Assembly: GCA_965113315.1 (NCBI GenBank)
Contig: OZ220369.1
Reading direction: 5' to 3' (one strand)
DNA from: Podarcis vaucheri
Taxonomy: Eukaryota
DNA: 64,000 nt
A program made the position numbers and the translations under genes. Of the stretch, positions 9,501 through 64,000 are shown one piece after another (the first letter of the stretch is position 1; each line of letters opens with the position of its first letter). Below the pieces are notes generated by a model. That model was not told the origin of the DNA and searched no databases. It saw only the letters and a program-made list of their open reading frames with translations.

Positions 9501-12500
9501 ATTGCAAGGCACACTGTACCTGGTTGCCGAGGAAGAACTACAAAGGAGAAGAAAGTACAAATGAAAGAGAGAGAGAGGGAGGGAGGGAGGGAGAGAGAGG
9601 AAACAAAAAACATTGAGCAGCATTAACAGAGCATCGCTATGAAAAATGTCTTGTTAACCACAAGTACCACTGATGTGTATACTCGACATTACTCAGCATG
9701 CTAAACGTCACATTTTGGTACTTCCCTTTTATACACATTTATATTAACGAAGCAAGCCAAAGATCTTGTACACTTTAGAAATGTGACTAGGGCCAGTGCT
9801 GGTTATTTTACACTCTCTGCTCTTGTGCTAAATTCAGGGCAAGCTCAAGACATTTTGCCAACCCAAGTGATAATTATAACCCCCACTTTGTTCCTTAAAA
9901 ATGCAGCCACCAACAAGTGGCTGCTCAGATTGTTTGCACCTCAGCTAAAATTGTGCGCAGTTCAGGCACGTGGGAAAGCTAAGCTAGATGGTTCTATTGC
10001 CAGTGGAAGACTCTGAGAACTTGAGACAAAAACAGAAGCAGCACAGAAGTCGCCCATGAGCATTTTCAGAAGGACTGTGTTTAAATCTCAGAGGAACACA
10101 CAGGGCTGGAAAGTAAAACAGGCAAAAGGAAACACTTCCTGCCCCCCCTCCCAGTCAATCATGGAGTTCCCTGCTACAAAATGAAATGGGGGTCCACAAT
10201 GAAATTAGAGAACTTTTTTTTTAACCCTTTACAATGAAACCATCAGGTTGCCAGAGGAACCTCCCTCCCCCCCAACTGTCAATGCAAGCAAAGCCCCCTT
10301 CAGCTTACCCGGTATTTGTTCTCTCCAATCTGCTCCACTTGGAATCTCTTTGCGCATTTACACTGAGCCACCTGCCTGGTCACCTGTTGAGTAGAAAGAA
10401 AAGAAGAGATTCCATTAGGCTAAACTACAGGAAAGCTCTCCAACTGGTTTGAAAGGTTTTTCTTTTTACTTTAAGACAGTCCCTACTGAAAAACCACAAA
10501 GGGGAAAAAGTGGGCAATATTGTCCCAATTTATATTCATCATCACAACCCTGTGAGGATAAGAAGATTAGTGGTGACTGGACTATGGCTGTTTTGGTGAG
10601 CTTCATGCTTGAATGGGAGGGATTTTAACCCAAGACCCCAGTGGAACAAGTCTGAGAGTCTACTTATTGCACCACACTACCTTCCCCAGATAAGATTCAA
10701 AATCCCATTCTACTATATATTTGAAAGATTTATATCCCTCCTGTCATCACAAATGATCTCAGGGTGGGTTGCAAGAAGTTAAAATACAACAAAGCAATAA
10801 AATACAATTATCACCATGAAAACAACTCCCACTGTTTTTTATAGCAACTCTCTGGAACTCTGCAGCTACATTTGTAAAATTTAGAAGGCCTGGAGGAGGA
10901 GGAGGAGGAAGGTCTCCAGCTGGCCTAGGAATTTAACAAAGGTTTGCACCAGCTGAACTTTAGAGCAGAGGGGGTTCCACACCTGGATGTTACTGCATTG
11001 GCAAAGTCTCTCACTTCTTGACTCAAATTCTCACTCTCATGAATCTTGATTCCTTGACTTTTTACATATAAAAGAGATGTGACAGCCCTGAGCAAATGAA
11101 GGCTGGCACATGTGACTGTTATGATTATTCTTATGGCACTGTCCATGCATGTGGTGCTTTGCAAAGTATGAGAAAACAGGTCCCTTTCTCAAGGTGCTTA
11201 CAAACTAGAAAATAAGTAACAAGGGAGGATAGCAGGAGAAAAATATGGGGCTATTGAATTAGGGCATGGAGACCAGATAGTGGTTTTGCCAAAGGCTTTC
11301 TGGAAGAGGTGGGCTTTAAAGGGAGGAGGGCAGGAAGATTAAGCAGCCATCCTTCCACAACTTACGCAGCACCAACTGCATCCTAGGTGCTTGCAGAGCA
11401 GTGTGAGATTGAAACAGCTTAACTATCTCCATAGCTCCTGGATCCTTGCTGCCTTATCAAAATGTCTTACCTCATCCTCAATTTTGTCTGCATCTGTTGT
11501 TGGCCGATAAGCATCTTTGTTAGGGTGCAGAGCAGCTACAAACTCATAATAGTCAATGTAACCATCCCCATCACGGTCAAAGATGTCAGCTACCGCAGTC
11601 ATCTCCAACTTAGTAGTGGGGAATTCTGAATGGGAGAGAACAAATGGAAACTCCATTACCGATCCCAAATGCAAGATTTGTCAGACATCTTTGAGAGGCA
11701 GTGACTGGCCTAAGGTCACCTAGTGAGCTTTACGGCTGAGTGGGGATTTGAACCCTGGTCTCCCAGCTCCTAGTCCGACACTCTAACCACTATTACTTTT
11801 ATTACAGTTTTTACACTATACTGCACCACAATGGCTCTTCTTGCAGGCAGGGTTGTTTGCTTGACACTAAGCAGGAATTGCTTCCTGCTTCTCAATCTGG
11901 GGGAAAAAACAAAGTCAGCAGGTAAAGGCAGCTGAAAGTGTTTTAAGCATTAAAAGTGTTAGGGGGCTTACTGGATGCCAGGATGCCATCAATGAACTCC
12001 TGCCGGGTGATTTTCCCATCTTGGTCTTTGTCAATCCGCCGGAAGAAGTCCATCACACGTGACTTCTTGTGGTTCATCCAGCGCATGTACTTCTTCCGCC
12101 ATACATCAAAGTCAAAGTTTGCAAACTCTTTCAACTGGAGAAGGGAAGAGGAAAGGCTGTTTCACATCTCACTTGGAAAGAGGATCCACAAATATTTACA
12201 TCTCCTAAGATGCAGGAGACAACAGCACAGCTCTCTCTCCTCTCAAAGTGTAGGATTTGCCTGATTGACACCAAACTCACCAAAATAAGGAAGGGATACA
12301 GTGGGCTATGCATTTAGCCCTGGCCCCTCACGTCTTTAGGGTGAATGTCTGTAGCGGCAGAAGCCATCTAATGGCTTCCTGTGCAACTGAGAATCCTGTT
12401 TTACCAGGGCTCTTAATTGTACACCAAGGGCAAGGGGCCAAGAGCAATTGCATGGATTTGGGATGGGCTAAAAGTATGCCCTGCCAGTTCCCATCCATCT

Positions 12501-43500: not shown

Positions 43501-46500
43501 TCACATATGTGGGAAAGCTGTATGCATGCAGTCATGCGTAATGATGAGCCCACAGGAGTGCCAATATAAATTGGGTTTGGAAGAAACACTCCATCCCAAC
43601 CCCAAGTACTTGAAAGAAGCAGGGTGAGTTAGCAGCTTGGGGGTAAGCTAAAGGGCAGCAGAGAGTAACACAGAGCTGATGCACAGGTCAAAATCCACTA
43701 ACATAAAGTTCTCCTGCACTGACTGCCTCCTCTGAAATGAACCACAGCTGTTATCTGTTCTTGCACAGCTACCATTCATTGAAAGGGGACCCTCCCCTTT
43801 TTCTTACATCTGCAAGGGAGCTCTTGAGGATAACCCTCCACAGACATTAAAACATCCTGGACTGGCCCTGGATGGCCAAAGGTTATCTGCTACCACTGCT
43901 GGTTTAATTGGTATCTGAATTCTGTATTTTTGTTTTATGCTGATTTAATCTTATAGTTTGATTTTGGTTTATACTGCACATATTTCTATCTTGGCACCTT
44001 CAAGTGAAGGGCAGGTGATAAATATTTTAAAGAAGAAAGAAATACTGTGGCACAGAAGCGTGTTCCACACGTGCTGCTCATGGTGCTCTGGGACTCACAG
44101 GATCAAGAGGGGGTTTTTGTGAGTTTTACAAGCAAGAGACTCTCCTGCAAGTAGTGCATCCCATCCTGCGGACAGAGTTTGTATTCTTCAGTCCTGCTAA
44201 CCACACTCAGTTGCAATGTCCTAGCCATATGGCGCAGAAGTTCAGAGTGATTTTATTCAGAGCACAGGCATGAGACAGCATCTTTAACAGCTTGTTTTGC
44301 AAAGTTATTGTGTGCAATGCACAGGCAGTCACAGTTCATAAAATAACTCGTGTTATGAAACAGCAGGGTTACCAGAGCAAAGGGCCACAGCTCAATGGCA
44401 GAGTATCTGGTGTGTATGCAGAAGCCCCCAGGGGTCCAGCCCCCAGCAGCATCTCCAGGCAGGGCTGGGAAAGGCTCGCTGCCTGAAACCCTAGAGAGCT
44501 GCTGCCGATCAGAGTAGCCTGTACTGAGCTAGATGGACCAATGCTCCAACTCAGTATAAGGCAGCCTACCAAAAGAACATCAAAGTATACTTTGCGGGGA
44601 GAGGAGAGCGCAAAGCAAAGGTCACTTTCTATCGCTTCAGTGCTAAATTACAACAGACAAGCTTGCATCCTACAGGCCTTGTAGCTTACCTGGCTGTAGC
44701 TTTGCTGAGAAGCCCTGCCCAGTGGCTTCCAAGGCTCTCCAGTTGGGCAACTATCTTCTCCCTGTCTGCTGGTTCAGCAGACTGAGCTATTCTCCCACCC
44801 TCTGCTTGGATCATCTCGACAGTAGCTTTCCGGTCATCCAGGAGACGCTGGAGCAGCTTTGGAATAAAGTATTAGAAAGTGATAATTATTCTGCTAAGGA
44901 AGGATTTACCCTTCTGCTTTCAGTAAGGCCAACAGTCCCCAGGGCTCTCCCTCTGCTAAACTCACATTTCCCTCCTACCGCTTTTAACTGTGCCCTCTTT
45001 CTCCCCTTTCACTCACCACCATCAACTTCAAGTTCCCAGACCTCACCCAGCAAAGGCTGCCTTTTATGCCATTCCTAGTGGGGGCTGTCTCCACACTAAA
45101 GGTTGGGTGTCTGTCCCCTATATTGTCCCCTCTCTGTTCTGCAAAGCTCACCAACTACCAGCCTCTTTCCTTCCTTTTCCTGCTTATTTGACATGGCACA
45201 GGTGGTAGATAGAAGCCGCCTGCCAAAAAGAAAAGCAAGTGAAACCTTTCCTGTCAGCTGGGGATACCTGGGGCTGCTGGTGGAGCTGAGTGCCCAAAGC
45301 AGAGAGAGGCCATGGAAGGTCCTGCCAGCCAGCTGTGCTCTGTGAGTTCAAGGTCCCCTGGCTCCCAACTCCTCACCTTTTGCTCCTGAATCTGAGCCTT
45401 CACTACTTTATATTCAGCAGATGGCGGCTTCTGGTTGGAGATGAGCTCCTCCGTGTCGGCCAACCAGCTGAGCAAAGGCTCCAAGGCATCCTGGAACTTT
45501 CCACAATGCAACAGGGCTTCCTGCAGCTGTGCAATCCTCTGCGCCACCTACATTTTGCCAGAACATAACAGTCACACATATATATTGCTACAGAAGCATT
45601 TACTGGTCAACCATTTGGAAAGTGTGCTTCTCAGATTCGCTTCATTTTCACAGTCACTGTGCAAGGTAGAACATTACTTCTCTTGAGTTCTTCACGGCCT
45701 AGGACCCTTGTACCTACAGGACCGCCTCTCCCAGTATGCCCCACGGAGGACCTTAAGGTCCATAAATAGCAACACCCTAGAGGTCCCAAGCCCTAAGGAA
45801 GTTAGATTAGCCTCAACCAGAGCCAGGGCTTTTTCAACACTGGCTCCGGCCTGGTGGAACGCTCTGTCTCATGAGACCAGGGCCCTGCAGGATCTGATTT
45901 CTTTCCGCAGGGCCTGTAAGACAGAGTTGTTCAGTCTAGCCTTTGGCTTGGAGTCAATTTGATTCCCTCCCTCTCTTTCTTTTTTCCTTTCTCTTCCTGT
46001 GATGAGGCTGCATTTTAATGTTTTAATGCTGTATTTTAATCTTGTTTTTAAGTTGCATTCATTCAACTTGTTTTTATTATTGGTTGTTAGCTGCCCTGAG
46101 CCTGGCCTTGGCTGGGGCGGGCGGGGTGTATATAACAATTACTATTATTATTAGTTTAAAAAGTGACTAATAACATTTATGTAAAAATCTATTTCCCAAT
46201 AATTGGTCACTCTCTAGGATGACCAAGCAACAGAATCCAGAATGAATCTATACAGAGAGAAGCAAACACAACTCACAATGGTGGACAGATCCACTGGGGG
46301 ACACAATTATCTCCCACCCCCAGCCACTTCCCTAAGTGTGCCCCTTTTACCTTCTTTTATACACAGGAATAGAAAAGTACTTGAAGACACTGTGTGTGTG
46401 TGTGTGTGTGTGTGTGGAAAGGCCCACATCCATTCTCCATGCCTAGCACTAGGTGGCCTGGACTTCACTGACAATGATCTTCACTCTGCTCATGGGCAGG

Positions 46501-46921: not shown

Positions 46922-49900
46922 CTGAGGAAACATGGAAGCGGGGGGGGGGGGGGGAGAGAGAGAGAGAGACAAAGGGTGTCAGCCTCCATCACAAATCATC
47001 AGTTTCCTTACTTAGCCATTTTATTTGCTATAGTTTTATCAGGCCGGGAACTCAGGGCAGCATACTGTACATGGTTAGCCCCACTCCAATTTTATCCTCA
47101 CAACAAACTTGTGAGATAGATGATGCTTTAGTGGAGATTCTTCCTGTCCCAAGGTCAAGATGACTGGCTGTCAGTGAACATCAAGGCTATGGAGGGATTT
47201 GAATCCAGGTCTCTGTCAGCACACAACATTGATCTAAATCTAACACCAGACTGGCAAGAAGCTGCTCAGTACTTATGGGCACCCTTGGCCTGCCTCGTAC
47301 CCCCCCAAGACTTTTTGACAACAATTCCCATCATTCCTGAATATTGGCAGTGCTGGCTGAGCTGATACAAGTTGAAGTCCAAAATATCTGGAGCACACCC
47401 AGTTGATGGAGGCTGCCTTAGGGCAATCCCTGGAGGCTACTGGCTAACCATTTCATTCTGTCTCCAGCTGTGGCTGAGAGCATCTCCTACATATGAATGC
47501 CAGACTTCATTTACAGATCACACCAACCCATGAATGAAGCTTGCAGACATAGCAAGTTAATGAGAATGGACTAGCTTACTAATTGGCTATCAGTATCTTG
47601 AGCTGAGGATATAAAGGTATTTGCAGAGAGGAATCTGGAGTTTTGTTTCACTTCTGGAAAAAGGTTTTAAACACAAGCAAAAAAAGAAAATACTGTGTGC
47701 AGCTGAGCTATAAAGGGTATCTCTGTAAAAACCAGCCTGCCAACCTGATAGACAAAAAGAGTGTTAGCTCTGTTGCATTTAGAGCTGGGAGGAAAAGTCA
47801 TGGCAACAAATGAGGCTGTACTGAAACACAACATGTGGGCCTAGAAGGCAAAGTGGCCAGCAGCTACATCTCTCTCCACCACTACCTCCTGCGCCAGAAA
47901 AGCCAGATTAGCTACACACCTACACTCCTCTAAGCTTGACAGGCATAATTCACTCTCTCTCTTGGAGAAAAACTTATCCACTTCCCTCTCTCAACACCGC
48001 TGGAGAGAGCACCACATTCCACAGCATGTTCACACCAGCTGCACAACTGCTTCCTATACACTGCCTTCCACATGCACAAGGTATCATAAACATACTGAAA
48101 GTTTGCTGCATTATCACTCAAAAAGACAAAAGAAAGATGAGTGCAATTGCTCAATCTCCAAGATCTTCCCACGACCTTGTGAGAGAGAAAAAGCACCATA
48201 AGGCAAAGCAAGGTTTAGAAATAAAGGGAGGGAAGGATGTGAGAGATAAAATCAGGAGAAGGCTGCTCCTATCAGGGAGCCCTGGATCTTCTGAAAAGTA
48301 CGTGGTGACAGACAAGACTCTGACAAAGAGCTGCCATTTCTCCTTCCCAGGAAAGGGAGGCTCCTGTGAAGGGGAAATGGTAGCAGAGGAGGAATTAAGA
48401 AAAAGGGGAAGGCAGGTAGCTCCTTCACTTGGGAACACTACAACAGAAGAGGCCATTTAGCCATGTGGGCACATGAAACGCCAAACCTCTGCAACTCCCA
48501 GGAATACAGATGATCACAGGTAGGGAAGAATCCAATGGCTGGAATCAAGAGAGATTCATATGTCCACAAATTCCTACACAAAAGATGCTTCCCTGTTGGA
48601 ATTTGCACTGCCTATTCAAGGCTCAGGAAGGCAATCTCATCCAAACTGCTTACTGTCTAGCTAAAGCATCCCTGGAAAGAGACCCTTAGCCCACTAAGGA
48701 CCAGTTTAGATATGTTTTGGACTGCCCTGTTCTTAGCTTGTTGACTCCCAGCTGGACATGTAAACTGATCTCAGTGACGACAACAAGCCCTCTGTGTTTC
48801 TGGGAGTTCTGATAATATACCATGATATGGCGCACGGCATGTTACTCTTTCATGTCACTTGGTTCCCTCCCTGTGGAATGGGAAGAACAGTGGCCTGCTT
48901 CACGCAGAGCTGGGCAAACTCCAAGGAACCATCAACAGCAGCCACAGTGGCAGATGACATAGGACTGCTTGCCCTGGATGGTTGCTAAACAGCAGAGGCC
49001 CAAAGCCAAGCTGGCAGATGGAAATTAAGGAGGATATACTTTATGCTGCAACTCACTTCCATGTCTGGTGCAAAATTTTCACTGTGATCTTCAAAGTTCT
49101 TTATAGAGGGCTGGATTTACTATTTTTTTATTTAATGAACACAAAGGAGTTATCTGAGTCAATAAACACCTGAAGGTTTGATGCTGTCCTGGAGAAACAT
49201 CAACTGTCATTCCAGCGCCTCTTTCTCCCTCACCTGACCATATCATTCCTGCTTGATTGGTCTAGCACCCCATTCTCTTCCCAGCTGCCTCCCGCTCCTT
49301 TTGCTGCCCCTTCTCTTCCAGAACTTCCTTTTAAAATGCACACAGTCCCTTCTTCAGCTTACATTGATTCAACTTACGGGAAGGGCTGTAGCTGCATGGA
49401 AGAGCACCTACCACAAGATGCAGGAATAGTCACCAACCTAGATGGCTTTAAAAAGATTAGACAAATTCACAGAGGGGAAGGCTATCAATGGCAATTAGCC
49501 ACAATGGCTATGCTCTGCCTCCACTGCTGCATCCAGGTCCAGGCTTCCCATCTTGCTGGCCAGCTAGAGAACAGGATGCTGGATTAGTCAGTTCCTCTGG
49601 CCTATCAAGGCTCTTCTTATAATTAAGTGCTTTGCATGCTGAAGCTCCTAGATTCAATCCCCACCATCTCCGGGCATACTGTATTTACAGGAGGAAAACA
49701 GGGCAGTTGCCCAGGGTGGCAAATTAAAGGAAGAGGCATTGCATTTAATCTGTTGGGAGCTGCCCAGAGTGGCTGGGAAACCCTGCTGGATGGGTAGGGT
49801 ATAAATATATTATTATTATTACCACCTCCCCACTGCCCTGCAAGGCAGCTGCGTGAAGAGCACCTGAAGTGGTCAGAGGCCACACTGAGAGTGTCACTCA

Positions 49901-50345
49901 AAGGGTAGCTGCCCTTGAGCAAACTCCTCTCCTCAGGAGGAGGCGAGAAGAAGGGCAGAAGGGCCTCCCATCCCCCATGCCCTTTGAGCCACACCAGCTG
50001 CATGCAGCCCCTGGACTGGTTCTTACTCTTGGCAAGAAGGCTGCCATCATGCACTGCAAGAGACAGTTCTGTGCACACCTTATTTCAGAGGCAGCAAACC
50101 TTTTCTGCTTGGGACAGAAGACAGAATAAATACATCACTGTATCCAGGTAGAGGTGGGAAAGAATCCCCAGAGACCTGCTGTCAGTCATGTAGATACTCC
50201 TGAGCTATATGGACCAATAGTCTGATTTAAGATTAGGCATCTTCCTACATCCTGGCAGTCCTCCTTTGGACCTCCATTTTAAAACAAAAAGTTGTCTTTA
50301 ATGCTTCTTCTTATTGAGCCAACATCTATTGGTGTATCACTGAGA

Positions 50346-50478
50346 CCAGGTGCACGGAACCTTTGGCCCTCCAGATGTTGCCAAACTGCAACTCCCATCA
50401 GCTCCAGAAAGCATGGCTGAAGACCAAGGATGGTGGGAGTTGTAGTTCGGCAACAACCTGAGGTTCTGCACATCTGGT
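50346..50478. mobile_element. Short fold-back (MITE-like) element, representative of a family with >10 copies in the window
   Basis: CCAGATGTTG..ACT(A/G)CAACTCCCATCA ... TG(A/G)TGGGAGTTGTAGT palindromic core; also at ~4975-5075, 9064-9190, 15085-15300, 32485-32580, 34503-34640, 34960-35085, 40045-40160, 42293-42390, 47300-47415, 52240-52350 and 63835-63935. Confidence 0.7.
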
Positions 50479-52610
50479 CTAGGGCAAGGAGGTTTGTGTT
50501 ACTCAAAAGCTACAGACATTGGTTCAGTTATAACAGAGAGCTTTCTCTTGCTGGGATCCTGCCAAGATACGCCACCCAGAAGAGCCTCTTTCTCATGCTT
50601 CATTGGGAGAACCCTTTTTTTTATTAACAAGATTTATCAGGTGCCTTTCCAAAAGATCAAGTCAACACACAGCAATTCTGTAAATATCATATTAAAATGC
50701 ATGATTTGTTCAGGTGTAAGTGGTAGAATTCATCTGCTGTGGCATTTAAACACAATTACTTCCAACTACAGACTTTTCTTTTATAACAAAACAAAAAAAA
50801 TATAGATGTGTGATTAAATCCCACAGGGCATTTAACTATGACCGAATGTATTAAGGTCCAGAGCTGAAAAAACACTCAAATTTCAAGCAGTGCATTACGC
50901 AACATGCCCCCCCCCCCAATTTCTTAGTACCTGGTTGCTGGGGGTTTTTTAAGCTGCTGAGTAATTGCTAGAACACAAAACTCCCAATACCAAGTCTCTT
51001 ATTCATCCAATAGCTCTGAATCACCACTATTTATCAGTCTGCCCTACCTCATAGGGGTGTCATGATAAATGTCAGCAGCAGGAGTGGGAGAAAGAAAAAG
51101 CACACTCATTCACAGCCTCCCCAGGTGCTCCGGACCCCCACTTCTGCCAACACAGACAATGGTGAGGGATGATGGGAGTTGTAGTCCAAAACACCTGGCA
51201 AGGTAGTTTTTGGTGATCTTTAAGGAGCCCTTTGCTCCCAGGGAGAAAGTGGCACATGAAAAGTAAATCAGCAGCAAAAACCACCAAACTGAAGCAACAA
51301 ATTGCTCTGTTCATAAGAAAATGAGGAACAGCATCACATTTCTAAAGCTTTGCAGCCAGCTAAAGATTTAGCAGCCACTTCCAAAAAAAACTGTGCCCAA
51401 ACTTCCCTATGGTTTACAGAGGGCCCTGAGCGAGACAGCTGCGATGCAAGACAGAAAGGATCTAAGCTTGGAAAAGTCAGGGGAAAATGTTTTCCTCCCT
51501 TGCAACGTTCAGCAACTTGTCTCCAGAAATGGGAACATGCCAGGATATTAAATGAAGATGCTGTCCAGAGCTATAGAGCCGTTCTGCCATAAGAAGGATT
51601 GATGGCAACATAACAGCAAACGACTCACCCAGCCCTTCTGCTGGGACTGCTTATTTTATATTATATATTTTATAGATAGATATAAATGGAAAGGGCCCTC
51701 CTACATGCAACAGCAGCCAGACACACACACACACACACACACCCCAGACCGATAAGCCAGGCATGCAAGCTCTCTGAAGGGACATGCCGCCACCTCTTCC
51801 TACACGCTCTGGCCATAACCTCAAATACAAAACTTATTTTTAAAACGAACACAGGAGAGGACTCCAAAGCATTTCGCTCTGTTCAAGCAAAATCCCCACC
51901 CCCACCCGCAATCAGGAACAGCTGCCATATTTGGGTGGGAATGATCCAGAAACCAGAGACAGGTTTAGTGGGGGAGGCTTAAAAACGCAAAACCCAGCCT
52001 TAACAACCGCCTCGGCAGAAAATACTTGGAAGCATAGCTTAGAGCTTCAAATACAGAACGCGGAGAGGATGCCAGAGCGCTGGCTGGCTAGCTCTCACTT
52101 GGACAAAGGCACAAACCTTTCCCTGATTCAGAGAAGCAAAAGCAGCAGGAGGAGGAAAGACTGGAGGGCAAAAGAAAAGGGAGGGCAGACACTAACTGCC
52201 TTGCAATAGGAGGGCCAGCATGCGGCCCTTTTCCTCACACCAGCCTTCCCCAACATGGCGCCTTCAGGACACACGGACCTACAACTCCCGTCAGCCCCAG
52301 TCAGCACAGCCATACTGTAGTTCAAAAAATCTGGATGGTGCTACACTGGGAAGGGCCATTTTTAGACAGTAAATATGTAAGGGGAGGGGAGGGGGGGTCT
52401 ACCTCTTCCCACTCTTCATCTTAAGACTCTTACCAGATGCAGAAATGGATGGCTTGACAAAAGTACCTTCTTCCCATCTAGACCAATGAAAAGTTTTTGT
52501 GAACTTAAAAGCTTCTGTACCATTTTGTGACATTTGAGTTCGCCCAATAGAGAAACTAAATGTGCGTGTGTTTGGGGTGGAGAATGCCAGTCGGTGTTCC
52601 TATTCACAGG

Positions 52611-52843
52611 AGTCAGTGTGGTGTAGTGGTTAGAGTGCTGGGAGATCAGGCTTCAAATCCCCGCTCAGCCATGATGCTCACTGGGTGTGGTCTTGGGCCA
52701 GCCACTCACTCTCAGCCTAACCTACCTCACAGGATTATTGTGATTAAGAAATGGGGAGAAGCTTGTAGGCCGTATTGAGCTTCCTGGAGAAAGGTGGGCT
52801 ATAAATGGAATGAATGAATGAATGAATGAATGAATGAATGAAT
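52611..52843 (+). mobile_element. MIR/Ther1-related tRNA SINE (Squam3-like) with (GAAT)n tail
   Basis: GTGGTGTAGTGGTTAGAGTG...TTCAAATCCCCGCTCAGCCATG...CAGCCTAACCTACCTCACAGG; ends in a GAAT microsatellite. Reverse copies at ~10545-10680, 11693-11790, 14795-14890, 34130-34326 and 47060-47248. Confidence 0.75.
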
Positions 52844-53333
52844 TTGGAAGCAAGTCCTGCAGAATTGCCCAGAAAATACACAGAATTCATCTGTTTGTTA
52901 TTCTCTGCTTCCCTGCCCTCCTAATGATGCTACCAGGCTCTCATTTACAAGATGCTTCTCTCAAGACCCATTTCTAGTATCCTGTTCCCATTCTTCATGG
53001 TAAACCTGCTGACCTCTTTCTCCTACCTAACAGCTGGTTTATATTTTATCCAAGTGCAAATGCAACACACACACACACACACACTTGCAATAAATGTATC
53101 ATGCAGACACACCAATCAGAAAGCCAGGAGAAGTCATGGCTTCTTGCCTAATGTACTTGCCCGTTCCCCCATCATGGCTAAAGTGAGAATGGAGGATTAG
53201 ATCAGGAAAACAAGAGAGGGTAAGTGAGTGGTGGCGGCTAAACACTCTCTCCCTAGTGCAGTTCCAACAATCCAGTTTGGGGGCTCACAGCTGCTTTGCA
53301 CCATATTAAAAAGTGGGAGGTCCTATCTCATAC

Positions 53334-53402
53334 CCAGCAGCACAACATTTCGTTTGGCAATGACCTCTCATAGCTTCTCTTCTCCCCTGTAGAATCAACC
53401 AT
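53334..53402 (-). CDS. Candidate alternative first coding exon MVDSTGEKRSYERSLPNEMLCCW
   Basis: gccATGg Kozak context, 23 codons, TGG|GTATGA donor in phase 0 matching the 46921 acceptor. Confidence 0.4.
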
Positions 53403-54596
53403 GGCAACAGCTAAGAACACCTTCCATATACTTCCCTGGCTGTTTTGACCCTGGCGTGTTGAGCAAATATCTCCCACTCTGGGCACCATAGAACTGAGAA
53501 TGTTTCCTATCAAATAGCTCTCTCTCCTCAGATATCTCTCTCTCCTCAGACTCAGCTGGACAGACTGTAATAAACCCAGAGCGATAATTCATGTCAGTTT
53601 GGCTTAGCTTGGCATCCCCTGCTCCCCCCCCTTTCTTCCTAATTACAGGTCTGAACTGTACAGTCTTGGCTGTGGGTGCTGCAATTTTTCACTGAGAAAA
53701 ACTCAGCCTTTTGCCCACAGTTGGAGACTGTTTTCCACATGTGAATTGAACACTACATCATAGCCCTTCTCAAGCCTCTGGCTACTTCTGCTTTTCTTGT
53801 TTTTGAAATGTGCAACTGTCTGAAGCGTGAGAAATTGCAACCAAGCCAAGTTCCTAGGCAGGGGGGTAGGGGGGAAAAACCAACGTCATGACAGTTTAAA
53901 AAGTACAAAAAACTAGCTTAGCTTGGTTGACAACTGTCAAAATCAGTATCCAAAAGAAAACAATGCCCTTTTATAGACGTTTGGTGCTGCAAACAGACTT
54001 GGCACAAAAGCTTCTCTTTTCCAAACCCTTTCTTTACTTGGAGATTTAAATAAAAAGTTTTCAGCAACTTCTTTTCTTCTCTACGGATTCGAAAGAGCCT
54101 TGACTAGGCAGTTGGTTGGTTTTTATCACTTATGTAATGTTGTTAGCCGGAATTTGCCTTATACCATTTCCCTCTTAGCAACACATTTTCCCATCTATGA
54201 GCTCTGCAGCTACCCACACTTAATCACAATCTTTCAGAAGAAAATGTATAATTTGCTTCTGAGTGCATGAACATAATGCTACTTGAATAAGTCAGTTCAA
54301 GACACTGGTGGTGGCAAGAATATTTTTACGTAAGCAAGATAATGACAGGTTTGTTCTTGTTTGAAACCCTCCCCACACCTGAAAAGAAAAAGAAACCCAC
54401 CAACCCAACACTGTTTCTATCAAGACCATTAAATCTGCCTACAAAATGTAACCCCCTTTCAAAGGGAAGGAGAAGCCAAATTTTAACAAAAGGGGGAAAA
54501 GTCAGGCATGCTTTGTACTCCAAATTACATCAGTCAGTCAACTATGGATTAACTCCTCACTTCCTCCCCAACTCCCTTCCTACAAAAAAAGTAATT

Positions 54597-57500
54597 TTAT
54601 GTCTGATATGGCAGCGTGTGGGGACCAGGGGAAACAAATACCTCATTATCTGGAACCAATCCATCCGTTTCAGCAGGAGGCCCTTCAGCAACGAGGGAAG
54701 AAAAGGAGGTACTTTCTGAGTTTGGCACAGCAGAGGTCAGCTCCTCCTCTCCACTTGCAGGTGCTGCAGAAGAGGGCAGCTGTGCTGTACTGCAAACTGT
54801 ATCCCACACTGCTCCAGGTGCCAGAGAGAAACCAACTTCTGGTGGCTCTGGCACACCATCTGCACCCAATGGCATAGAGATGGCAAGGCCTTTAATCGCT
54901 TGGGCCACCTGAACAGGCTCCTTGGTGGAGGTGGGCATTGTGGCATTGGCCAGCTCTTCCAGAGCAGGCCGTTCCTCTCTACTTAGAGGCATATTTTCCA
55001 AGGAGAATGGCACAGAAGCAGAGGACATCTCCTCTGCATTTGGTAAGAATGGTATCAGGTCCTCTGCTTTGGGCTCCGAAGTGACTCCTGGAAGACCATC
55101 TTGACCACAAACTTCTTTATACCTGGACATGCAGGCAGCATCCACAATAGGCCCCTCTGCCTCTGGGGTTGAAGCAAGTGAGGATGGCAAAGGCAGGGTG
55201 GAGCATGTTACAGCTGCTGGACCATCAGTGATGGAAGGCCCCACTCCAGTAGAAGGAAAGGGGTCAACAAGCTCCTCTGGGCTATCTGGAGGGGCATCAA
55301 GAGTCTTGTCACTAGGGAGGGGACTGACAGAAGCAGATTCCTCTCCAAAAGAAGAGGCCAAGTCTTCTGAACTGGGCTGTGCAGCAAACAAATCTTCAAC
55401 AAAAGCTTGTGAGTTGGTACACACAAACTTGGCACTACATTCCTCATCCTTTGTTATCTCACTGTCCCTGCTCTGCCCAAAAAGGAACTCCAAGTCTCCA
55501 GGTTCCAAGCAATATCTCTTCTCTTCCACTGGGCTGCCTTTGGCTGCTGCAGCTGCTCCCTGCTCAACTACCTCTGGTGTTTCCTCCTGGAGAAGGGCTG
55601 CACTCGCTGACACTTCTCCATCACACAGCAGCCTTGTTAAAGCCTCAGGTTGACACACAGCCTTCAAGTTCTCAGAGGAGCCTACATGTTTTAGAGGCTC
55701 CTCAGAGTCCCGCAATGCAAACTCACTTTGTGAAGGCACCCAGGAACTATCTACATCCTCTATGTCACTAACGTGGCCCCCACAAAGGAGGTTTTCTTTA
55801 TCCAGTTCTGCAACTTCATCCTCAGAAACCAGCTCTGGGACATCCCAGTTGGAGAAGTCAGTCCTTTCTGATGGGTTGAGCTCATCGCAAGCCTGCAGCT
55901 CTTTCCCCATAGCACTCATCATCTCTTTTGCCAAGTCAAAATCTGGTTGGGAGTCCAGCTCCTCAGCAGTTGTGGCAAGTTCATCATGGCTCGGGGATGC
56001 CTCCTTTGCTCCATAGCAAATGACAGGCTGCATTTGCTGCTGCTCAGTTTCTCTGCCTATGGCAAGAACATGGATGCAAGGAGGTGGTTCTCTACAGCAA
56101 GGGAAATCAACTGAAGCCACAGGTTCACCCATGGCAAAGTCCAACAATCCTTTGACCCTCTGGCTTTCTGCAGGGTCATGACCTGCCAACAGTTCTGCCC
56201 CATACTCCTCTATCTGACTAACTAAGGATGAGAGTGATTGTTGGGATACAGCATCTTTTTCAAGCGGAGGACTGGAAGACGTCACCTTTTCAGAGTCACC
56301 AGAAGTTTCCCGTTCAGAGTAGCACTCTGAAAGGGTAGCTTCTGCTGTACTTACTGCTTGAGAACCACATGTGGCATCAAAGTCCTCCAGATCTGAGACC
56401 ACAGCAGAGTCTGCCATGCTGACTTCAAGGTGAGTCAAGGGCTGGGAGGCTCCCGCCAAGTCCTTCTGCATGTCCAGCCCTTCTGAACACTGATTAGCAT
56501 TCTGTACCTCCAGATCACCTGGAGCCACTCCATCCCCTCCTTCTTCGAGCATGCAAAGCTTTTCTAGTTCAAGGAACATCTGCACAGAATCCGTGTCAGA
56601 GAACTGCTCTGGGGCAAGGGAGATGGCACAGGCTTCTAGGCCAGAAGCAAATTCCTCCTCTTCAATTTCGGCTGCTACAGCTTCAGCATTGCAGGCACCA
56701 GCCTCCTCCACCTCCTCCTCAAGAGTAGCGTTTAAGTCTTGGTGCGTTTCCTGGGGAACGAGAGCAGAGTTGACAGCTCGCAGCTGTGAGTCATCCCACA
56801 GCTCTTGCCAGTGAGATGGGTGGTTAGAGGTCCCTTGGACACCAGCAAAACTCTCTACAGCTTCCGTAAGTGTCACGGCTGGAACACTTAATTGTTCCTT
56901 TTCTTCAGAAATATCTGTCAAGTAACAACTTCTTTTCTCAGCAGCCTTCCCTGACAGCAAGCCTTCCTCCCACTCCTCCCCAGCCTCCATCATGATCAAT
57001 CGCTCATCCTCCTCAAACCTCAGCTCCGACTCAGTCTTTTCCCGGAGGTTGGGGGCGATGAGAATGCTCATCCCTGGGTCCAGGAGCTCTTCACTCAGGC
57101 AAGGAGACAGTGGCACTGTTTCTATGACACAGTCTGTGTTGTCTGCCTCCAAGGTGTCATGATGCCCACTGCCAAGGCCTGCTCTGATGGCATTTTTCAT
57201 CACCCTTGGCCACGTGGCGCTCGAGAGCCTGTGGTCCCGCCGCCTGCCGCCGGTCAGGTCAATTACCATGTCCTCTGGTCCCAGAAGAGGCTGGCACTCA
57301 TCCTGAGACAACTCACAGAAGGCTTCGCTTAGCTGCTTCACTTCCTGAATTTCTGGAACTCCAGACAGTTTGGGAATGTGCTCCAGGGTCAACGGCTCTG
57401 ACATGCATTCCCCCTGGTCGGACTGCCTAGGGCTCTCTGCCAACATGGCAGTGGACTCCTGCTTCTCTTGCAAGGATGGGTTAGAAACTCCAGCTTCTGA

Positions 57501-57962
57501 GACTTCACTCAAGGAGGCCTCAATTCTCTCAGCAAACTCGGGGAAATTGGGTGGCATAAAGGACTTCCATGACCGCCTGTTGACATTCTCCTTCTTCTCC
57601 GGGTTTGGCCGCCGCCTTGGGGGTGCCGGTGCTGACTTGGAGACATCACTGCTAAGTTTCAAGGCATCAAAAATGACCCTCTCGTCTAACTTTTTGCTCT
57701 CGGGTGCCTTTGATTCAAAGACACTGGGTGCCCCTAAAGTCCCATTGCTAGAGATTGTGCTGCCATCCCCTTTTTCAAGGGTACTCTTGGAAGGCTGGCT
57801 AGTCTTGGACCCCTGATCAATTTGCTCATTTATCCTCATGGTGTCGTAGATGGACCTCTGAGGGACGTAACAGTCTTCTATATACCCATCCTCATCCTCT
57901 CCTTTCCCCAAGCAAGCAGGACTCTGCCTTAAACAGTCAGGCCTGCTGAGTGGCTTGCCCAT
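54597..57962 (-). CDS. KIAA0754: KIAA0754-like large acidic, largely disordered ORF nested in a MACF1 intron (1121 aa to stop; or 1107-codon alternative first exon ending at donor 54642)
   Basis: Uninterrupted ORF. N-terminus MGKPLSRPDCLRQ...YIEDCYVPQRSIYDTMRINEQIDQGSK and internal motifs NRRSWKSFMPPNFPEFAERIEASLSEVSE, REKTESELRFEEDER and SDTDSVQMFLELEK match my recollection of KIAA0754, which lies within human MACF1. Start is in strong aagtATGg context. Confidence 0.9.
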   Translation of the reverse strand: MGKPLSRPDCLRQSPACLGKGEDEDGYIEDCYVPQRSIYDTMRINEQIDQGSKTSQPSKSTLEKGDGSTISSNGTLGAPSVFESKAPESKKLDERVIFDALKLSSDVSKSAPAPPRRRPNPEKKENVNRRSWKSFMPPNFPEFAERIEASLSEVSEAGVSNPSLQEKQESTAMLAESPRQSDQGECMSEPLTLEHIPKLSGVPEIQEVKQLSEAFCELSQDECQPLLGPEDMVIDLTGGRRRDHRLSSATWPRVMKNAIRAGLGSGHHDTLEADNTDCVIETVPLSPCLSEELLDPGMSILIAPNLREKTESELRFEEDERLIMMEAGEEWEEGLLSGKAAEKRSCYLTDISEEKEQLSVPAVTLTEAVESFAGVQGTSNHPSHWQELWDDSQLRAVNSALVPQETHQDLNATLEEEVEEAGACNAEAVAAEIEEEEFASGLEACAISLAPEQFSDTDSVQMFLELEKLCMLEEGGDGVAPGDLEVQNANQCSEGLDMQKDLAGASQPLTHLEVSMADSAVVSDLEDFDATCGSQAVSTAEATLSECYSERETSGDSEKVTSSSPPLEKDAVSQQSLSSLVSQIEEYGAELLAGHDPAESQRVKGLLDFAMGEPVASVDFPCCREPPPCIHVLAIGRETEQQQMQPVICYGAKEASPSHDELATTAEELDSQPDFDLAKEMMSAMGKELQACDELNPSERTDFSNWDVPELVSEDEVAELDKENLLCGGHVSDIEDVDSSWVPSQSEFALRDSEEPLKHVGSSENLKAVCQPEALTRLLCDGEVSASAALLQEETPEVVEQGAAAAAKGSPVEEKRYCLEPGDLEFLFGQSRDSEITKDEECSAKFVCTNSQAFVEDLFAAQPSSEDLASSFGEESASVSPLPSDKTLDAPPDSPEELVDPFPSTGVGPSITDGPAAVTCSTLPLPSSLASTPEAEGPIVDAACMSRYKEVCGQDGLPGVTSEPKAEDLIPFLPNAEEMSSASVPFSLENMPLSREERPALEELANATMPTSTKEPVQVAQAIKGLAISMPLGADGVPEPPEVGFSLAPGAVWDTVCSTAQLPSSAAPASGEEELTSAVPNSESTSFSSLVAEGPPAETDGLVPDNEVFVSPGPHTLPYQT

Positions 57963-58299
57963 ACTTTTCAAAACAATAAAAGAAAACAGAACAGAATAGA
58001 ATGGGGGGACCCGCAAAGAAGAGCCCCACAACAAGAAGGAAAAAAAAAAACCTCCCCTGCCTCACAAGCTCTCCATTCAAAGCAAAAAGAAATAGATTAC
58101 GGTGGAGCAGGGTGTCTTTTGAAAATCCCTAATAACGACTTGGGAGGCCACAATTTTGTATTCCACAGAAGTTACAGAGCTTTCCAGAGAGAAGTCATCT
58201 TCCACCGTGGAAGTCCTTGAAAGAGGCAAGGCATTCCATGGCTCCTGCGGAAACGCTAGCAGTCCAAGGCCAACACATAAAGCCGTTTTTGCCGATCGC

Positions 58300-59950
58300 T
58301 ATTTGCAAGCCCTCCGCCTCCTCCGGTTGCTCGGTAGGGCTGTTCTCCTTAAGGCAAGTCTTCCAGCCCGCTCCGACAAAGCCTCTTCCAGAGGGCGCCC
58401 CGGTCGGAAGCTCAGCAGCGGCGGCGGCGAGGAAAAGGCCAGCTCTCGGGAAGGCGGCCGCAGAGCGCGCTCTCCTGGCGGAACAAAGGCCCGGCCTCCC
58501 GCGCGCCTCCATGCCCGGGCAGAACTGCGCTTTGCAGAGGCTGCTTCGCCGGCCCCTCGGCGCGGCGCGGCTGGCTCGGACTGCGCCTGGCGGCGGAGAT
58601 CCCTCGCGATCCCAGCGCAGGAAGTTCTTCATGCCGGGCGACGTCGGGCGCCTCCAATCTGCCCAGCATCCTCGGCCAGCGGGCGGGATAACTGGTTCAG
58701 CGCCGCTAGCAAAGGCCCTGGAAGGTAGGCGGGCAGATCTCCCCGTGCAGTCAGGAAGCGACCGGTGATCTCGTGGCGAAGTCTGCTCGGCGTTTCTCCC
58801 TCGCTCAAGGGCGGCGGCAGCCGGCGGACAGAAGCAGAGGCACCCCCGCAGGGAACGGGCCGGGACAGCCGGCTGCCGCTGTCCTCGCCGGGCTGCTCTC
58901 GGCTCCTACCATGCTCGGGCCGCGCAGACGTAGCTCTCCCCGCTTGCTCGCTCTCCAGGAGGGAAGTTTAGTTGGAGCCTTTTGTGCGTCGCGGCGGCGG
59001 CGGCGGCAAGAGCGGGGCCCGCCTCCCCCGGCAGCCGTCCCCGCCGAGCCGAGCCGTGGGCTGCATGTCAAGCGAGCAGCAGGAGCCGCCGCCGCCGCCC
59101 CCTCTTCTGTGCTCCCGAACGGGGCTGCAGCTGTCACGGCCCTTCTCCGCGCACAAACTTCTTGCCGGGGGAACAAAAGGCTGCGCGGCGAGGCTCGCTC
59201 GGATGGAGGGATGCAGAGCGCGCGACGGCTGGCTGGCTGGCAGGCCGCTCCTTTTGCTCGCCCTTGGAGGAGGCCGGCGGGGCGAGACCCAGCAGCAGCC
59301 CGCCCCCCGCCCGGGAAGCCCAACTCCGGCAGGAGAGCTCCGGCCCTCAGCGCCAACGGCTGCGAGATTCCGGCTGGGCCACCGAGCTGCCAACTCCGAG
59401 GGGAGGGGACGCGCCGAGTGGCGGGGAGGGAGAGAGGGGAGGGAGGAAGGAGGCGGGGACCAGCAGGCAAGGCGAGGCGGAGCGGGGAGGAGGTAGGATG
59501 GGGGCGGCCTTAGTGAGCCCCAGGCGGGCTCGGCGAAGCCAACGGCCACGGGCGGATCGAGGCGCGGAAATCGAGCCCCGCCAGTCAAGGACCCGGCCGC
59601 TCAGCAGCGGAAAAGGCGTCTGGGCGCTGAGCCTGGTCCGCGGGGGAGAAAAGGAATATTGCTGGTTCAAGGGGAGAAACAACCCCTCCCGCGCCTTGTC
59701 TGGGTCTCCCCCTCCTCCTCTGCCCCCTTCGCCTGGGGCGGGGGTCGCAGCGCAAATCCCTTGACAAAGAGCAGCGGCGCCCTGCTTCCCTCCAGCGCGC
59801 CTCTCCGCTGACTCCGGTTCGCGGAGGCCAAGACTTTTTTTGAGGGGCGGGAGAGACGCCTTGCGATCAGCAACCGCCCGCACGACTGCCAGCGTATCTC
59901 TCCTGCAAACAACCGTCCCCCAAACCAGAGAAATACCGGTATAAGGTTCT
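58300..59950. promoter_or_regulatory. Intragenic CpG island; probable internal promoter / 5' leader of the KIAA0754-MACF1 short transcript
   Basis: Abrupt shift to very high GC and CpG density, with GCC/CGG runs and GC-box-like GGGGCGG motifs (~59280, 59450-59510), immediately upstream of the minus-strand ORF; the rest of the window is CpG-poor. Confidence 0.85.
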
Positions 59951-60663
59951 GCCTCGAGTAGCACACTGGTGCCGCAAAGATAGTAGAGACGTTTAGTTGG
60001 AGCGTGAGAACGCGCCGCTTGAACATGTGCAGAGTGCAGAGCAAACAATCCTCACAAAGCTGCAATTTTCACTAGGGGGAGGAAATGATAGTGCCTCACC
60101 ACTGTCTTCCTCCTAGGCATACAAAACCACTATTATAAATTGCTGACGTTGGGTTTTTCCAGGAGAGGGCAGGGGAAATAACTTGCAGATGAGCTTATTA
60201 ATTTGATGGAGCAGGGGAGGTACCTGTGCAGAGTAAATCCCTCTTCCTTAGCTCTTATTTGCTATCCAGCAATTGGCTAAGGAGTTGCAGGTCATTTACA
60301 GCCTTACAGCTTTGACAACACTGTATGAAAGCATCCTCACTTCCATTTATTTTTTTTAAAGCACAGGTGTGCACGTGTGAGAAAACAGCAGGACAGGGTC
60401 AAGATGTGTCTTTATGTGGAAATATCTGCACAAAGGTATGCTAGGATATTTCAAATGGGGCTAAAGTTTCATAGTTGGATTTCAAAGGCGTTTGCCCGAC
60501 ATTTCCCTTGCAACACACCACCATAGGAAGGCCATAGCAAAGACCCAACATAACCTGCTTCTAACTACATGATAGGATTAAGCACTGTGAAACGAAGAAT
60601 AAAAGAGTTCCTCTTTTGGGGGCCTTTCTCACACAACATCACACCCACAACCAGCCCACATGG

Positions 60664-61355
60664 TACTGAGGACAGGATCACACTTCAAAACGACCTTGAC
60701 AGATTAGCGAACTGGGCCAAAACAAACAAGATGAACGGTTAACAGGGAGAAATGTAAAGTATTGCACTTGGGCAAAAAAAATGAGAGGCACAAATACAAG
60801 ATGGGGGACACCTGGCTTGAGAGCAGTACATGTGAAAAGGATCTAGGAGTCTTGGTTGACCACAAACTTGACATGAGCCAACAGTGTGACGCGGCAGCTA
60901 AAAAAGCCAATGCAATTCTGGGCTGCATCAATAGGAGTATAGCATCTAGATCAAGGGAAGTAATAGTGCCACTGTATTCTGCTCTGGTCAGACCTCACCT
61001 GGAGTACTGTGTCCAGTTCTGGGCACCACAGTTCAAGAAGGACACTGACAAACTGGAACGTGTCCAGAGGAGGGCAACCAAAATGGTCAAAGGCCTGGAA
61101 ACGATGCCTTATGAGGAACGGCTAAGGGAGCTGGGCATGTTTAGCCTGGAGAAGAGGAGGTTAAGGGGTGATATGATAGCCATGTTCAAATATATAAAAG
61201 GATGTCACATAGAGGAGGGAGAAAGGTTGTTTTCTGCTGCTCCAGAGAAGCGGACACGGAGCAATGGATCCAAACTACAAGAAAGAAGATTCCACCTAAA
61301 CATTAGGAAGAACTTCCTGACAGTAAGAGCTGTTCGACAGTGGAATTTGCTGCCA
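60664..61355 (+). mobile_element. CR1 LINE 3' ORF2 (reverse transcriptase C-terminal) fragment, relatively young, truncated at both ends
   Basis: ORF 60762-61427 has CR1 motifs [45 protein letters not shown] and [12 protein letters not shown]-like; similarity stops at WNLLP. Confidence 0.93.
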
Positions 61356-64000
61356 ATCTGGCTTCCCTGCAACATGACTATTTGCAGAAACAAAGCACCA
61401 AGAGCAAGCAAAGGTGAAGGTTTCTAAGCTCTAGCAACACTGCAGGAGCTGGCAGGAGAAACATTGCACAGGCGTTTGCCTCAATGAGGCCCTGAATCCT
61501 TAATGCTCAATAGTCCCAACTCCTTGTAGTTACACAGTTTTCAAGCTTTTCTACATTGAACTTTGCCCACCTTGTCATGTAGGAGGGCATCATTCTCAGC
61601 TCATACCAGGTGTTCTGGGCTTCTCCCTGGAAACCAAAAGCACAGCCTGCAACACTCTGTGGCTGGTGAAGGAAGTTGCTGGTAGTCTTGGGGCAAACAC
61701 TCTTTCAAGGAAGATTGTCAACCTTGACTTGAGGAACCCACAGTGAACACTTGACAAAGCACAGATTTCCTCATTATACGATCTGGAAAGCATGGCCAAA
61801 GAGCAAAAAGCAGTTGCCTCATCTGCAACAGCACGTTCACACATCTTCTCCCCACAAAACCTGCAAGGTTGTGATTACCGGTAAAAGCAACAACTGAACC
61901 CGGATTGTATGGGTGGGGGGAGAAGTGGGCGAGTGCAATTCACTTTCCATGCAAAGGTAGCTCACACTCCTACCCAAGAAATTACCCTCCTAGGAGCTTC
62001 CTCCCACAATCAACCGAAGCAACCCAGGCCACAGGTATGCTGCATAGAGCAAGTGCACAATCCAGCAAGGCAATTCTGGGGGAGGAGCAATTCTTGTCAA
62101 TCAAATCAAACTTTAAATATGATTTCCTCCCCCAAGGCGAGGGAGAAAACTTGGCAAACAGTTAAGGGATGGGCCAAGTAAAGTTGATCCAGATTATCTG
62201 CTTGGATTCTGGTGCCACAGAGCATTCATCTCATTAACCAACATTCATTGCATCATTTATACCAAACAGGAAATTTCACCACTAAAAAGCCCTATAGCAA
62301 CAGCTGCATACCGGGTTAGAGAGACTGCCCAGCCTCCTCTCTTCCCAGAGCACCACCAGTCAATATACTGTTTTGTGTGCACACAGAGACCCCCTTCCTG
62401 GCCTTTCCCTTGCTTGGCTCAGGAGCGCAGCAGACAGCCAGACATTACAGTCACAGAAGAACGTCTAGGCTAGCTGTAATAATTGGATGCAGCTGCAACA
62501 ATAATCTGGCCAGTAGTTTCACCAAAGCAGGCCCTTCATGTGCCACCGGCGCCTTCGCTGTTCAAACTGCCTTCAATTGCGCAGGGCGAGTTTTTCTTTT
62601 TTAACGGCTCTCCCAGCTTCCTGCAGGAAGAATCAGGAATTCCATGTGAGGTTTCCCCCCTCACTTATAAAAGGACGATGTGTTGAGTTTGCAGCCAGGA
62701 ATTCTTTGGCTATTTCCTCATCAGGTCACATGCCAACAAAAGGAGTGCCAATATACATTCATTCCCCTCCTCCTTGGAAGAGGGAATGTAGGCCTATCCC
62801 CTTCCCCACTAAAATCAAATATGCACATAAAGATACTGACATCGAAATTGGTCTGTCCTTCATCACACGAACTGACTCTCTTGAAGCTGAAATATTTGCT
62901 TTGAACTGGCATTACTTCAAGCCTGCTTGACGGTCTTGGAAAAATTCCAAGTGGCAACAACTCACACAAGATGCCCACGTATAAGAATGGCAACATTTCT
63001 TCCACTCCACCCACTTCCTTGAAATGGTCTCTAAAATTTCAGCTCTGGCAACTAAGAATCTGAAATATCTCTTCTCCCTCCCCAGCTGATTCTTTAAGAT
63101 GGGGTAGGGAACCTGGAGTCTAAATACTACAGACCTCCCTTTCTGGTCCTTGGGAGTCTCCACAGGCCACACCTTTCACTGGTCCTGCCTAAAACCACTA
63201 TCCTAGAGCAGTTTTGCCTGGCTTAAATGTGTCCTCGAACTTGGATAATGCCTCTTCCTTGCCTGGAGAGAGTAGGAACTAATGCCTCCCTGCTCCTATA
63301 TATGTTTTTCAAAAACCTGGAGGGACATTTTACCTGGTGGGGGAGTGATCCTTTTGGGTTCATAACAAGAGGGCACTCCTTTAAATGAATAATGGCTACT
63401 TCCTTATGACTGTCTTCAGCACTTTGAGTGTTCTGGGGTCCTTCCAATAAGATGCTCTGAGCACCCAGAAGATTGGCTCAGGTGTAGGAGATGGGTGGAG
63501 TACAAGATTTCTGAGGGATCTATGGGGACCATGGTTCCTTTTGCATTTCTTGCAGTGTGATGTAGAAAGACCAGCCAAGCAGCCAGCTGTGGCACTGAAC
63601 TATATTTACCTGATGATGGAACTCTGTATCCCCTAGCGACAATTTAGAAGGAAGGGGGTGAGAGAGAGGGAGAACAAGCCAAAGGCACGTCTGCTAATTT
63701 CAGTTTATTTGTGGGACTACAGTATGCCTGGTGAGCAAAGAATCCCAAGGCAAATTCAAGCAAACTCCCAAGCCCACGTGCACAGCAAAGGTTTGTTAGC
63801 TCAAGAGGCTCATCCTTTCGAGCAGCCCCAACCTGACACCTTCCAGATGTTTTGGACTACAACTCCACCAGCATGGCCATGTGATGCTGGGGCTGCTGGA
63901 AGTGGTAGTCCAAAATGCCTGGAGGACAACAATTTGGTTAGGAGGTGGGGGCACTTTTAAGCCAAAGTTGGTTTCCTTCTGTAGCCAGCAGCTTTTCACA

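Follow-up and report, generated by a model that had tools for sequence, protein, structure and literature searches.

A KIAA0754-type alternative first exon of MACF1 in the lizard Podarcis vaucheri: a known and conserved gene structure with a predicted N-terminal membrane anchor

The stretch of DNA analysed here (the window) comprises 64,000 nucleotides of contig OZ220369.1 from the Podarcis vaucheri assembly GCA_965113315.1. Its minus strand carries exons from the last part of the spectraplakin gene MACF1 and, in an intron upstream of them, a very large exon that is the orthologue of KIAA0754, annotated as 'MACF1 isoforms 6/7' in a spliced and a single-exon form. An earlier reading made from the letters alone (the sequence-only reading) had proposed that this exon switches between a stand-alone protein and a membrane-anchored MACF1 isoform without the actin-binding end. 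Our analysis indicates that the structure, though known, is real and conserved, and comparison with homologues makes the membrane anchor a good prediction. The features at the locus, and a paralogous exon elsewhere in the genome, are the following.

58250 to 60000, no strand assigned: intragenic CpG island with a likely internal transcription start (composition, RNA contigs)
57963 to 59419, minus strand: unspliced 5' untranslated region (UTR), about 1.45 kb long and containing 10 upstream ATGs (contig piece 54642-59419, list of ATGs)
57962 to 54597, minus strand: open reading frame (ORF) of 1121 amino acids (aa), including the single-exon tail (ORF list)
54642 to 57962, minus strand: the 1107 codons of the KIAA0754 exon, the alternative first exon (ORF and frame count)
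57912 to 57962, minus strand: predicted lipidation motif, with Gly2 and Ser6 for myristoylation and Cys10 and Cys17 for palmitoylation (conservation among homologues; the function is a prediction)
57498 to 57962, minus strand: module of about 155 aa common to dystonin, with short motifs and isolated helices and no global fold (alignment, motif tallies, AlphaFold)
54636 to 54644, minus strand: phase-0 splice donor GAG/GTATTT, a weak match to the consensus (sequence, contig ends)
54597 to 54641, minus strand: read-through tail of the single-exon form, 14 codons and a stop (ORF)
50620 to 50625, minus strand: first AATAAA past the stop, 4 kb into the intron (sequence; no sign of use)
46760 to 46921, minus strand: first shared MACF1 exon, beginning xFQKEQVDP (onward splicing in reads and contigs)
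414 to 45547, minus strand: remaining MACF1 exons, encoding spectrin rod, EF-hands, GAR and Ser/Arg-rich tail (tblastn, Pfam on orthologous fused proteins)
about 11468 to 12131, minus strand: EF-hands
about 6465 to 10386, minus strand: GAR
L005:7934-9223 and L006:3311 (contig C17): paralogous exon of dystonin (DST), 430 codons, with a phase-0 donor

From the ATG to position 54642 there are 3321 nt, exactly 1107 codons, which confirms that the donor GAG/GTATTT follows codon 1107 in phase 0. The sequence-only reading was equally correct about the phase-0 acceptor at 46921, which has a pyrimidine tract, a terminal CAG and the required frame, about the stop 14 codons past an unused donor, which yields the 1121-aa product, and about the first minus-strand AATAAA downstream, which it placed at about 50620-50625 and which lies at 50625. 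The canonical upstream MACF1 exon also ends in phase 0, about 33 kb upstream of 46921. The shared exon appears to enter the rod in the middle of a spectrin repeat, so that helix A would be missing from the short isoform, as judged from a weak PF00435 match (positions 47-94 of 105, E 0.0009) that lies below the curated cut-off. This entry point is about 2,250 residues before the C-terminus. The last coding MACF1 exon lies just past the window start, and with 10 kb beyond the window start added, the downstream exons cover 2240 of the 2249 residues of a bird orthologue from rod to C-terminus. The spliced product is therefore predicted to be about 3,360 aa long, in line with the protein of over 3300 aa foreseen earlier, with its acidic arm, rod, EF-hands and GAR; the rod, the EF-hands, GAR and the Ser/Arg-rich tail with its SxIP motif are all kept. 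No Pfam family of the calponin-homology actin-binding domain was found in the exon or in fused orthologues, and the plakin domain is absent from the spliced product because the exon joins only the last part of the rod; the proposed loss of both domains is thus upheld.

Transcription was followed in four sets of contigs (X1, X5, X9 and X14) and three raw runs (X21, X23 and X24), all from relatives of the lizard; among the runs listed as containing the stretch none was recorded as RNA, and X1 and X5 were treated as RNA because of their GT-AG joints and empty introns. The exon is transcribed as one piece, and the RNA match ends at the donor: contigs cover 54642-59419 in X1, 54642-59257 in X5 and 54642-57123 in X9, the last with a second piece reaching 58431. 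In these three of the four contig runs, which come from two organisms and three studies, the contigs stop matching at 54642 and leave 28 letters unaligned. Position 46923 is where the downstream exon's contig begins, so that the 28 letters and two shared ones make an overlap of 30 letters. Such an overlap fits neighbouring 31-mer contigs, and from this geometry we infer a splice from 54642 to 46921. Stranded reads lie on the exon in the same orientation as across the MACF1 junctions. Word depth on the first exon relative to the shared exon, a poor measure of expression, is 64.6/126.2, 35.5/98.1 and 11.9/37.1, that is, a third to a half. Read-through past the donor has zero depth in the contigs of X1, X5 and X9, and the bin means across the donor equal the share contributed by the exon alone (4.2 = 64.6 x 38/584 and 2.31 = 35.5 x 38/584); farther on, at 52928-54095, depth is zero in all four runs examined there. 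It should be noted that contigs drop rare variants and that few tissues were sampled. About 6-12% of each raw run was read, with depth near zero at the donor. In X14 a low depth of 2.97 at 53964-54417 has no explanation, and the short interspersed repeats at 45336-46503 and 47088-52927 draw many unrelated RNA reads and contigs.

The CpG island has an observed/expected ratio of 0.73-0.98 in eight of eight 500-nt intervals from 58001 to 60250, compared with 0.20-0.36 in eight flanking intervals. Within 58250-60000 the ratio is 0.75-0.98 and the GC content 0.64-0.74. RNA contigs reach 59419 in X1 and 59257 in X5, a low-depth piece reaches 59591 and none goes beyond, contig ends not fixing the transcription start site. 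As contigs run from the ORF into the island, the internal promoter with a giant first exon proposed in the sequence-only reading is supported; its description of the island as directly upstream of the ORF was right about the island but wrong about the distance, since about 1.45 kb of unspliced 5' UTR separates the two. This UTR contains upstream ORFs of, among others, 145, 105 and 85 codons, and the upstream ATGs and ORFs in 57963-59419 suggest translational control. Just 5' of the ATG (57964-58050) there is a pyrimidine tract ending in AG, a possible unused acceptor across which the contigs are unbroken. Beyond the island, a plus-strand ORF at 60735-61427 resembles the end of a CR1-type LINE (long interspersed nuclear element) reverse transcriptase.

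Because both products are annotated in human and mouse databases, the gene structure was already known, and the earlier remark that the gene-in-gene arrangement of KIAA0754 is not new holds for the spliced as well as the single-exon product. We take O94854 to be the UniProt accession of KIAA0754 and, from the names, isoform 6 to be the spliced form; of the two names, 'Isoform 7' alone came with a sequence. A search for proteins of similar length returned 269, and among the 120 listed many are named 'KIAA0754 homolog' or 'isoforms 6/7'; the closest named proteins, among the matches listed, are from squamates. Longer proteins of 1,980-3,424 aa that combine this N-terminus with spectrin repeats gave 71 matches, from snakes, birds, mammals, frog and fish, named MACF1, 'MACF1 isoforms 6/7-like' or dystonin. 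Many of them are gene models, several with wrong junctions, and are not independent evidence of splicing; in the models from human and chimp the fusion falls at the equivalent glutamate. A tree of 22 rows, of which the window's own protein is not one, separates a MACF1-type clade from the DST-type proteins. As far as the accessible text goes, KIAA0754 has been treated as exon 1 of NM_015038, overlapping MACF1 (PMC4450850), and the 36 papers that name it are apparently association or expression studies; no functional study of the short isoform was found in the literature, subscription papers and preprint supplements lying outside the search. The accessible parts of three papers list six MACF1 isoforms (PMC4914211, PMC8012552, PMC12918444) and those of a fourth list five (PMC3352950), none without a plakin domain, which is said to occur in all known MACF1 isoforms (PMC8012552).

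The N-terminus of the exon bears on the question of a membrane anchor. N-myristoylation usually goes with a pattern of Gly2, Ser6 and a basic residue at position 7, and cysteines near such an N-terminus suggest S-acylation; the exon matches both this pattern and the Cys-plus-basic N-terminus of SH4-type dual acylation. Among 400 collected homologues carrying the core motif, 341 start with the conserved eight residues, and all 341 keep Cys10 and a second Cys at positions 15-21; the net charge of the first 21 residues is +3 to +5 in 339 of them. The remaining 59 comprise 46 with the motif behind an upstream start and 13 without it. This conservation makes a myristoyl/palmitoyl anchor likely, so that, of the membrane-anchored, actin-less isoform of the sequence-only reading, the loss of the actin end stands and the anchoring is likely on account of Gly2, Ser6 and the cysteines. 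A divergent teleost copy (P0412-P0435) keeps Gly2, Ser6 and Cys10 and has its Cys pair at 16-17.

Conservation declines along the protein: identity to human isoform 7 is 85% over residues 1-100, 75% over residues 101-200 and 8-51% further on. In the 140 residues after the N-terminal motif, short blocks are present in 136-148 of 148 MACF1-type and 21-29 of 29 DST-type proteins. AlphaFold gave the first 180 residues a pLDDT of 55.5 and a pTM of 0.19, with helices at 38-49, 94-104, 132-135 and 141-152; such isolated helices without a fold are what partner-binding motifs would be expected to look like. A folded domain in these 180 residues is unsupported at that pTM. A complex prediction for the idea that the conserved N-terminus makes up the rest of the truncated spectrin repeat at the junction scored 0.00 (alignments not used) and speaks neither for nor against it. 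The ESM Atlas, with a best score of 0.79, provided leads only. Identity to mammals is down to 8-30% past about residue 500, as might be expected of a spacer. The arm has a net charge of -138 and is disordered in 15 of 23 intervals by the charge-hydropathy index; it contains no Pfam family at E<=1 and no transmembrane segment (best 19-residue hydropathy 1.03). Five motifs at 56560-57220 are confined to MACF1, each being found in 0 of 29 DST-type proteins: among the 148 MACF1-type proteins a TWP block occurs in 140, LxPCLS in 117, TESEL in 116, SDTDS in 108 and a match to LxxIxE in 92. We presume from resemblance that they may be kinase, 14-3-3 or PP2A-B56 sites.

A single-protein search of the lizard's own genome found two places, the second on contig C17. 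The paralogous exon in DST that the sequence-only reading had considered thus exists; it lies in the same intron, has a phase-0 donor and is followed by the dystonin equivalent of the 46921 exon. There is no CpG island at the dystonin exon in this genome. Logan contigs 9-10 kb long contain complete spliced dystonin ORFs of 2,636-2,690 aa, with one sequence recurring on 81 contigs, and since four such dystonin exons alone span 5 kb here, these contigs must be cDNA. In the accessible part of the 2017 review by Voelzmann et al. (10.1101/122010, Fig. 1 legend), an extra exon conserved between dystonin and MACF1 is described, which may represent a separate isoform or an alternative start, and this is probably the KIAA0754-type exon. 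The published isoform tables examined, as far as accessible, do not include the short dystonin product. A hagfish protein is fused at the same rod position, and together with a DST-type protein of the whale shark it places the exon at the base of the vertebrates; by sequence comparison the exon is conserved from hagfish to mammals, in MACF1 as well as in dystonin. A profile search of 1.84 billion representatives identified no invertebrate relative among its 63 matches, most of them without a name, and the 10 distant or unplaced ones that were looked up were from teleosts (5), hagfish, human or without a name (3).

Taken together, we consider it probable that the exon is an alternative first exon of MACF1 that is transcribed from the internal CpG island and spliced into the last third of the gene, encoding a 3,360-aa lipid-anchored tether between microtubules and membrane. 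Transcription would start in the island, and the splice from 54642 to 46921, to which contig geometry and orthologues point, would join the exon to the last third of MACF1. Gly2 would be myristoylated co-translationally, after which Cys10 and Cys17 would be S-acylated; partners may dock on the short conserved motifs beside the membrane, and the fast-evolving acidic arm may serve as a long flexible spacer. The predicted order is thus lipid anchor, motif cluster, long arm, shortened rod and microtubule-binding end, and the isoform would tether microtubules to the membrane without an actin-binding or plakin end. Several observations weigh against this. The RNA runs are labelled 'RNA?' and come from relatives that are about 2% different; no row bridging 54642 and 46921 was listed for the contigs or for the raw runs, and the sequence of the 28 extra letters is not part of the evidence. 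The junction predicted in the sequence-only reading fits the contig ends at 54642 and 46923 and is matched by no read listed from the 6-12% of X21, X23 and X24. X14 has the shared exon while its first exon is missing at 96% likeness, through divergence or absence. The ten upstream ATGs may restrict translation, and the 46 homologues with an upstream start, mostly dystonin-type, begin 5-234 residues before the motif, so that Gly2 would lie inside the chain if translation began there. Neither the motif nor KIAA0754 was matched in the accessible supplements of the HeLa myristoylome (PMC4200515) or in those of PMC10696250 and PMC6593224, which possibly do not include the full tables.

These negative searches favour the alternative that the spliced isoform is real but not lipid-anchored, its invariant N-terminus binding a protein and so linking microtubules to a protein partner. 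Conservation that reaches well past the needs of acylation, with a tyrosine-containing block in 148 of 148 MACF1-type and 29 of 29 DST-type proteins, also speaks for it. We regard it as quite unlikely, as Gly2, Ser6 and the two cysteines are invariant wherever the motif starts the protein, and the proteomic searches do not show that the isoform is expressed in those samples. The MACF1 signal in the HeLa myristoylome was rejected as evidence for the short isoform: in the accessible part of Thinon et al. (PMC4200515), MACF1 is only a caspase-generated substrate cleaved at D/G5087 and is missing from both non-apoptotic tables. Nine of its 10 peptides there lie after the junction, and one, present in none of four isoform models, matches the stretch just after the caspase site. 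Two further readings, that upstream MACF1 exons splice into the exon as an internal cassette or that it belongs to a separate nested gene with no relation to MACF1, are very improbable. The pyrimidine tract with AG just before the ATG would fit an acceptor, and the dystonin copy has CAG two bases ahead of its ATG and no CpG island; against this, contigs run unbroken from the ORF into the island without a break at that AG, and fused proteins start at this same Met.

As for the single-exon form, a regulated donor switch, by which some tissues make the 1121-aa protein to act as an adaptor at the membrane or to compete with the long form, is in our view unlikely. On the one hand, 'Isoform 7' is the curated name of the single-exon forms in human (1427 aa) and mouse (1115 aa), which once had RefSeq NP records, a human cDNA gives a rod-less product of 424 aa from the dystonin exon, and a weak donor would suit a switch: by a rough matrix the donor scores 1.6 against 6.6 for a downstream donor and ranks 10th of 228 regional GT sites. 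On the other hand, depth is nil past the donor in X1, X5 and X9, which, with rare variants dropped and few tissues sampled, does not prove absence, and the closest AATAAA is 4 kb from the stop. A donor-equivalent was found in 84 of 106 tetrapod and coelacanth proteins among the matches listed; 79 of these tails begin with Val (GT), as expected from the donor conservation proposed earlier, and two gene models end right at the donor. Within clades the tails start alike (VIVA in 30 and VFVA in 24 of the 84), which speaks for a switch, but they range from 4 to 62 residues; at the protein level there is thus conservation of the donor and none of tail length. With no read-through RNA seen, the switch to a stand-alone protein is unsupported, and this part of the sequence-only reading is not sustained. 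More likely, a weak donor at the end of a 4.8-kb exon leaks and yields the single-exon form as a minor by-product, which is the simpler account of the single-exon cDNAs.

Returning to the lipid-anchored tether, its structure is catalogued and its occurrence in a lizard is ordinary; the gap concerns function. If the anchor is real, cells have a way of fastening microtubule ends to membranes that does not involve actin, and the short product escapes alleles and antibodies aimed at the N-terminal half of MACF1 or dystonin. A wider proposal, which we advance tentatively and rate as falling somewhat short of probable, is that in all vertebrates MACF1 and dystonin each also encode a spectraplakin of a second class, that acts as an abundant, dually acylated tether from membrane to microtubule, predates the MACF1/DST duplication, may account in some tissues for a third to a half of the MACF1 transcripts containing the C-terminal exons and explains part of the genotype-phenotype split. 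If so, knock-outs and truncating variants in the 5' two-thirds of the genes would leave this class intact, whereas GAR and EF-hand variants would hit it, and this difference would explain part of that split for MACF1 and DST.

The nearest known counterparts are the human and mouse 'MACF1, isoforms 6/7' (NP_055853.1, NP_001161390.1), which share the exon, intron, donor residue and two products; the arm of human isoform 7 has 1404 aa compared with 1107 in the lizard, and both forms are annotated in human and mouse, whereas the lizard RNA examined supports the spliced form only. The short DST isoform has the same N-terminal module, intron and phase-0 entry into the rod, but its arm is about 430 aa long and its exon lacks the CpG island and the MACF1-only motifs. 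The caspase-generated MACF1 fragment (D/G5087, PMC4200515, accessible part) is likewise C-terminal, myristoylated and without an actin-binding domain; unlike the short isoform it arises post-translationally, is enriched in apoptosis and has no long acidic arm, and its peptides cluster near the cut. The upstream canonical MACF1 exon of the lizard (L004:6077-6650, contig C26) keeps the Asp/Gly equivalent of this site, 190 residues before the junction, so that caspase cleavage could yield a myristoylated fragment laid out like the short isoform. BPAG1a3/dystonin-a3 also has a lead sequence with a lipid-anchor (myristoylation) motif, although it is encoded by a different exon and precedes CH2, the plakin domain and the full rod. 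Finally, MACF1c and MACF1-4 resemble the short isoform in lacking calponin-homology domains and keeping the C-terminal microtubule-binding end; published lists give both a plakin domain and a size of about 600-670 kDa, whereas the short isoform is without the plakin domain and retains just the end portion of the rod.

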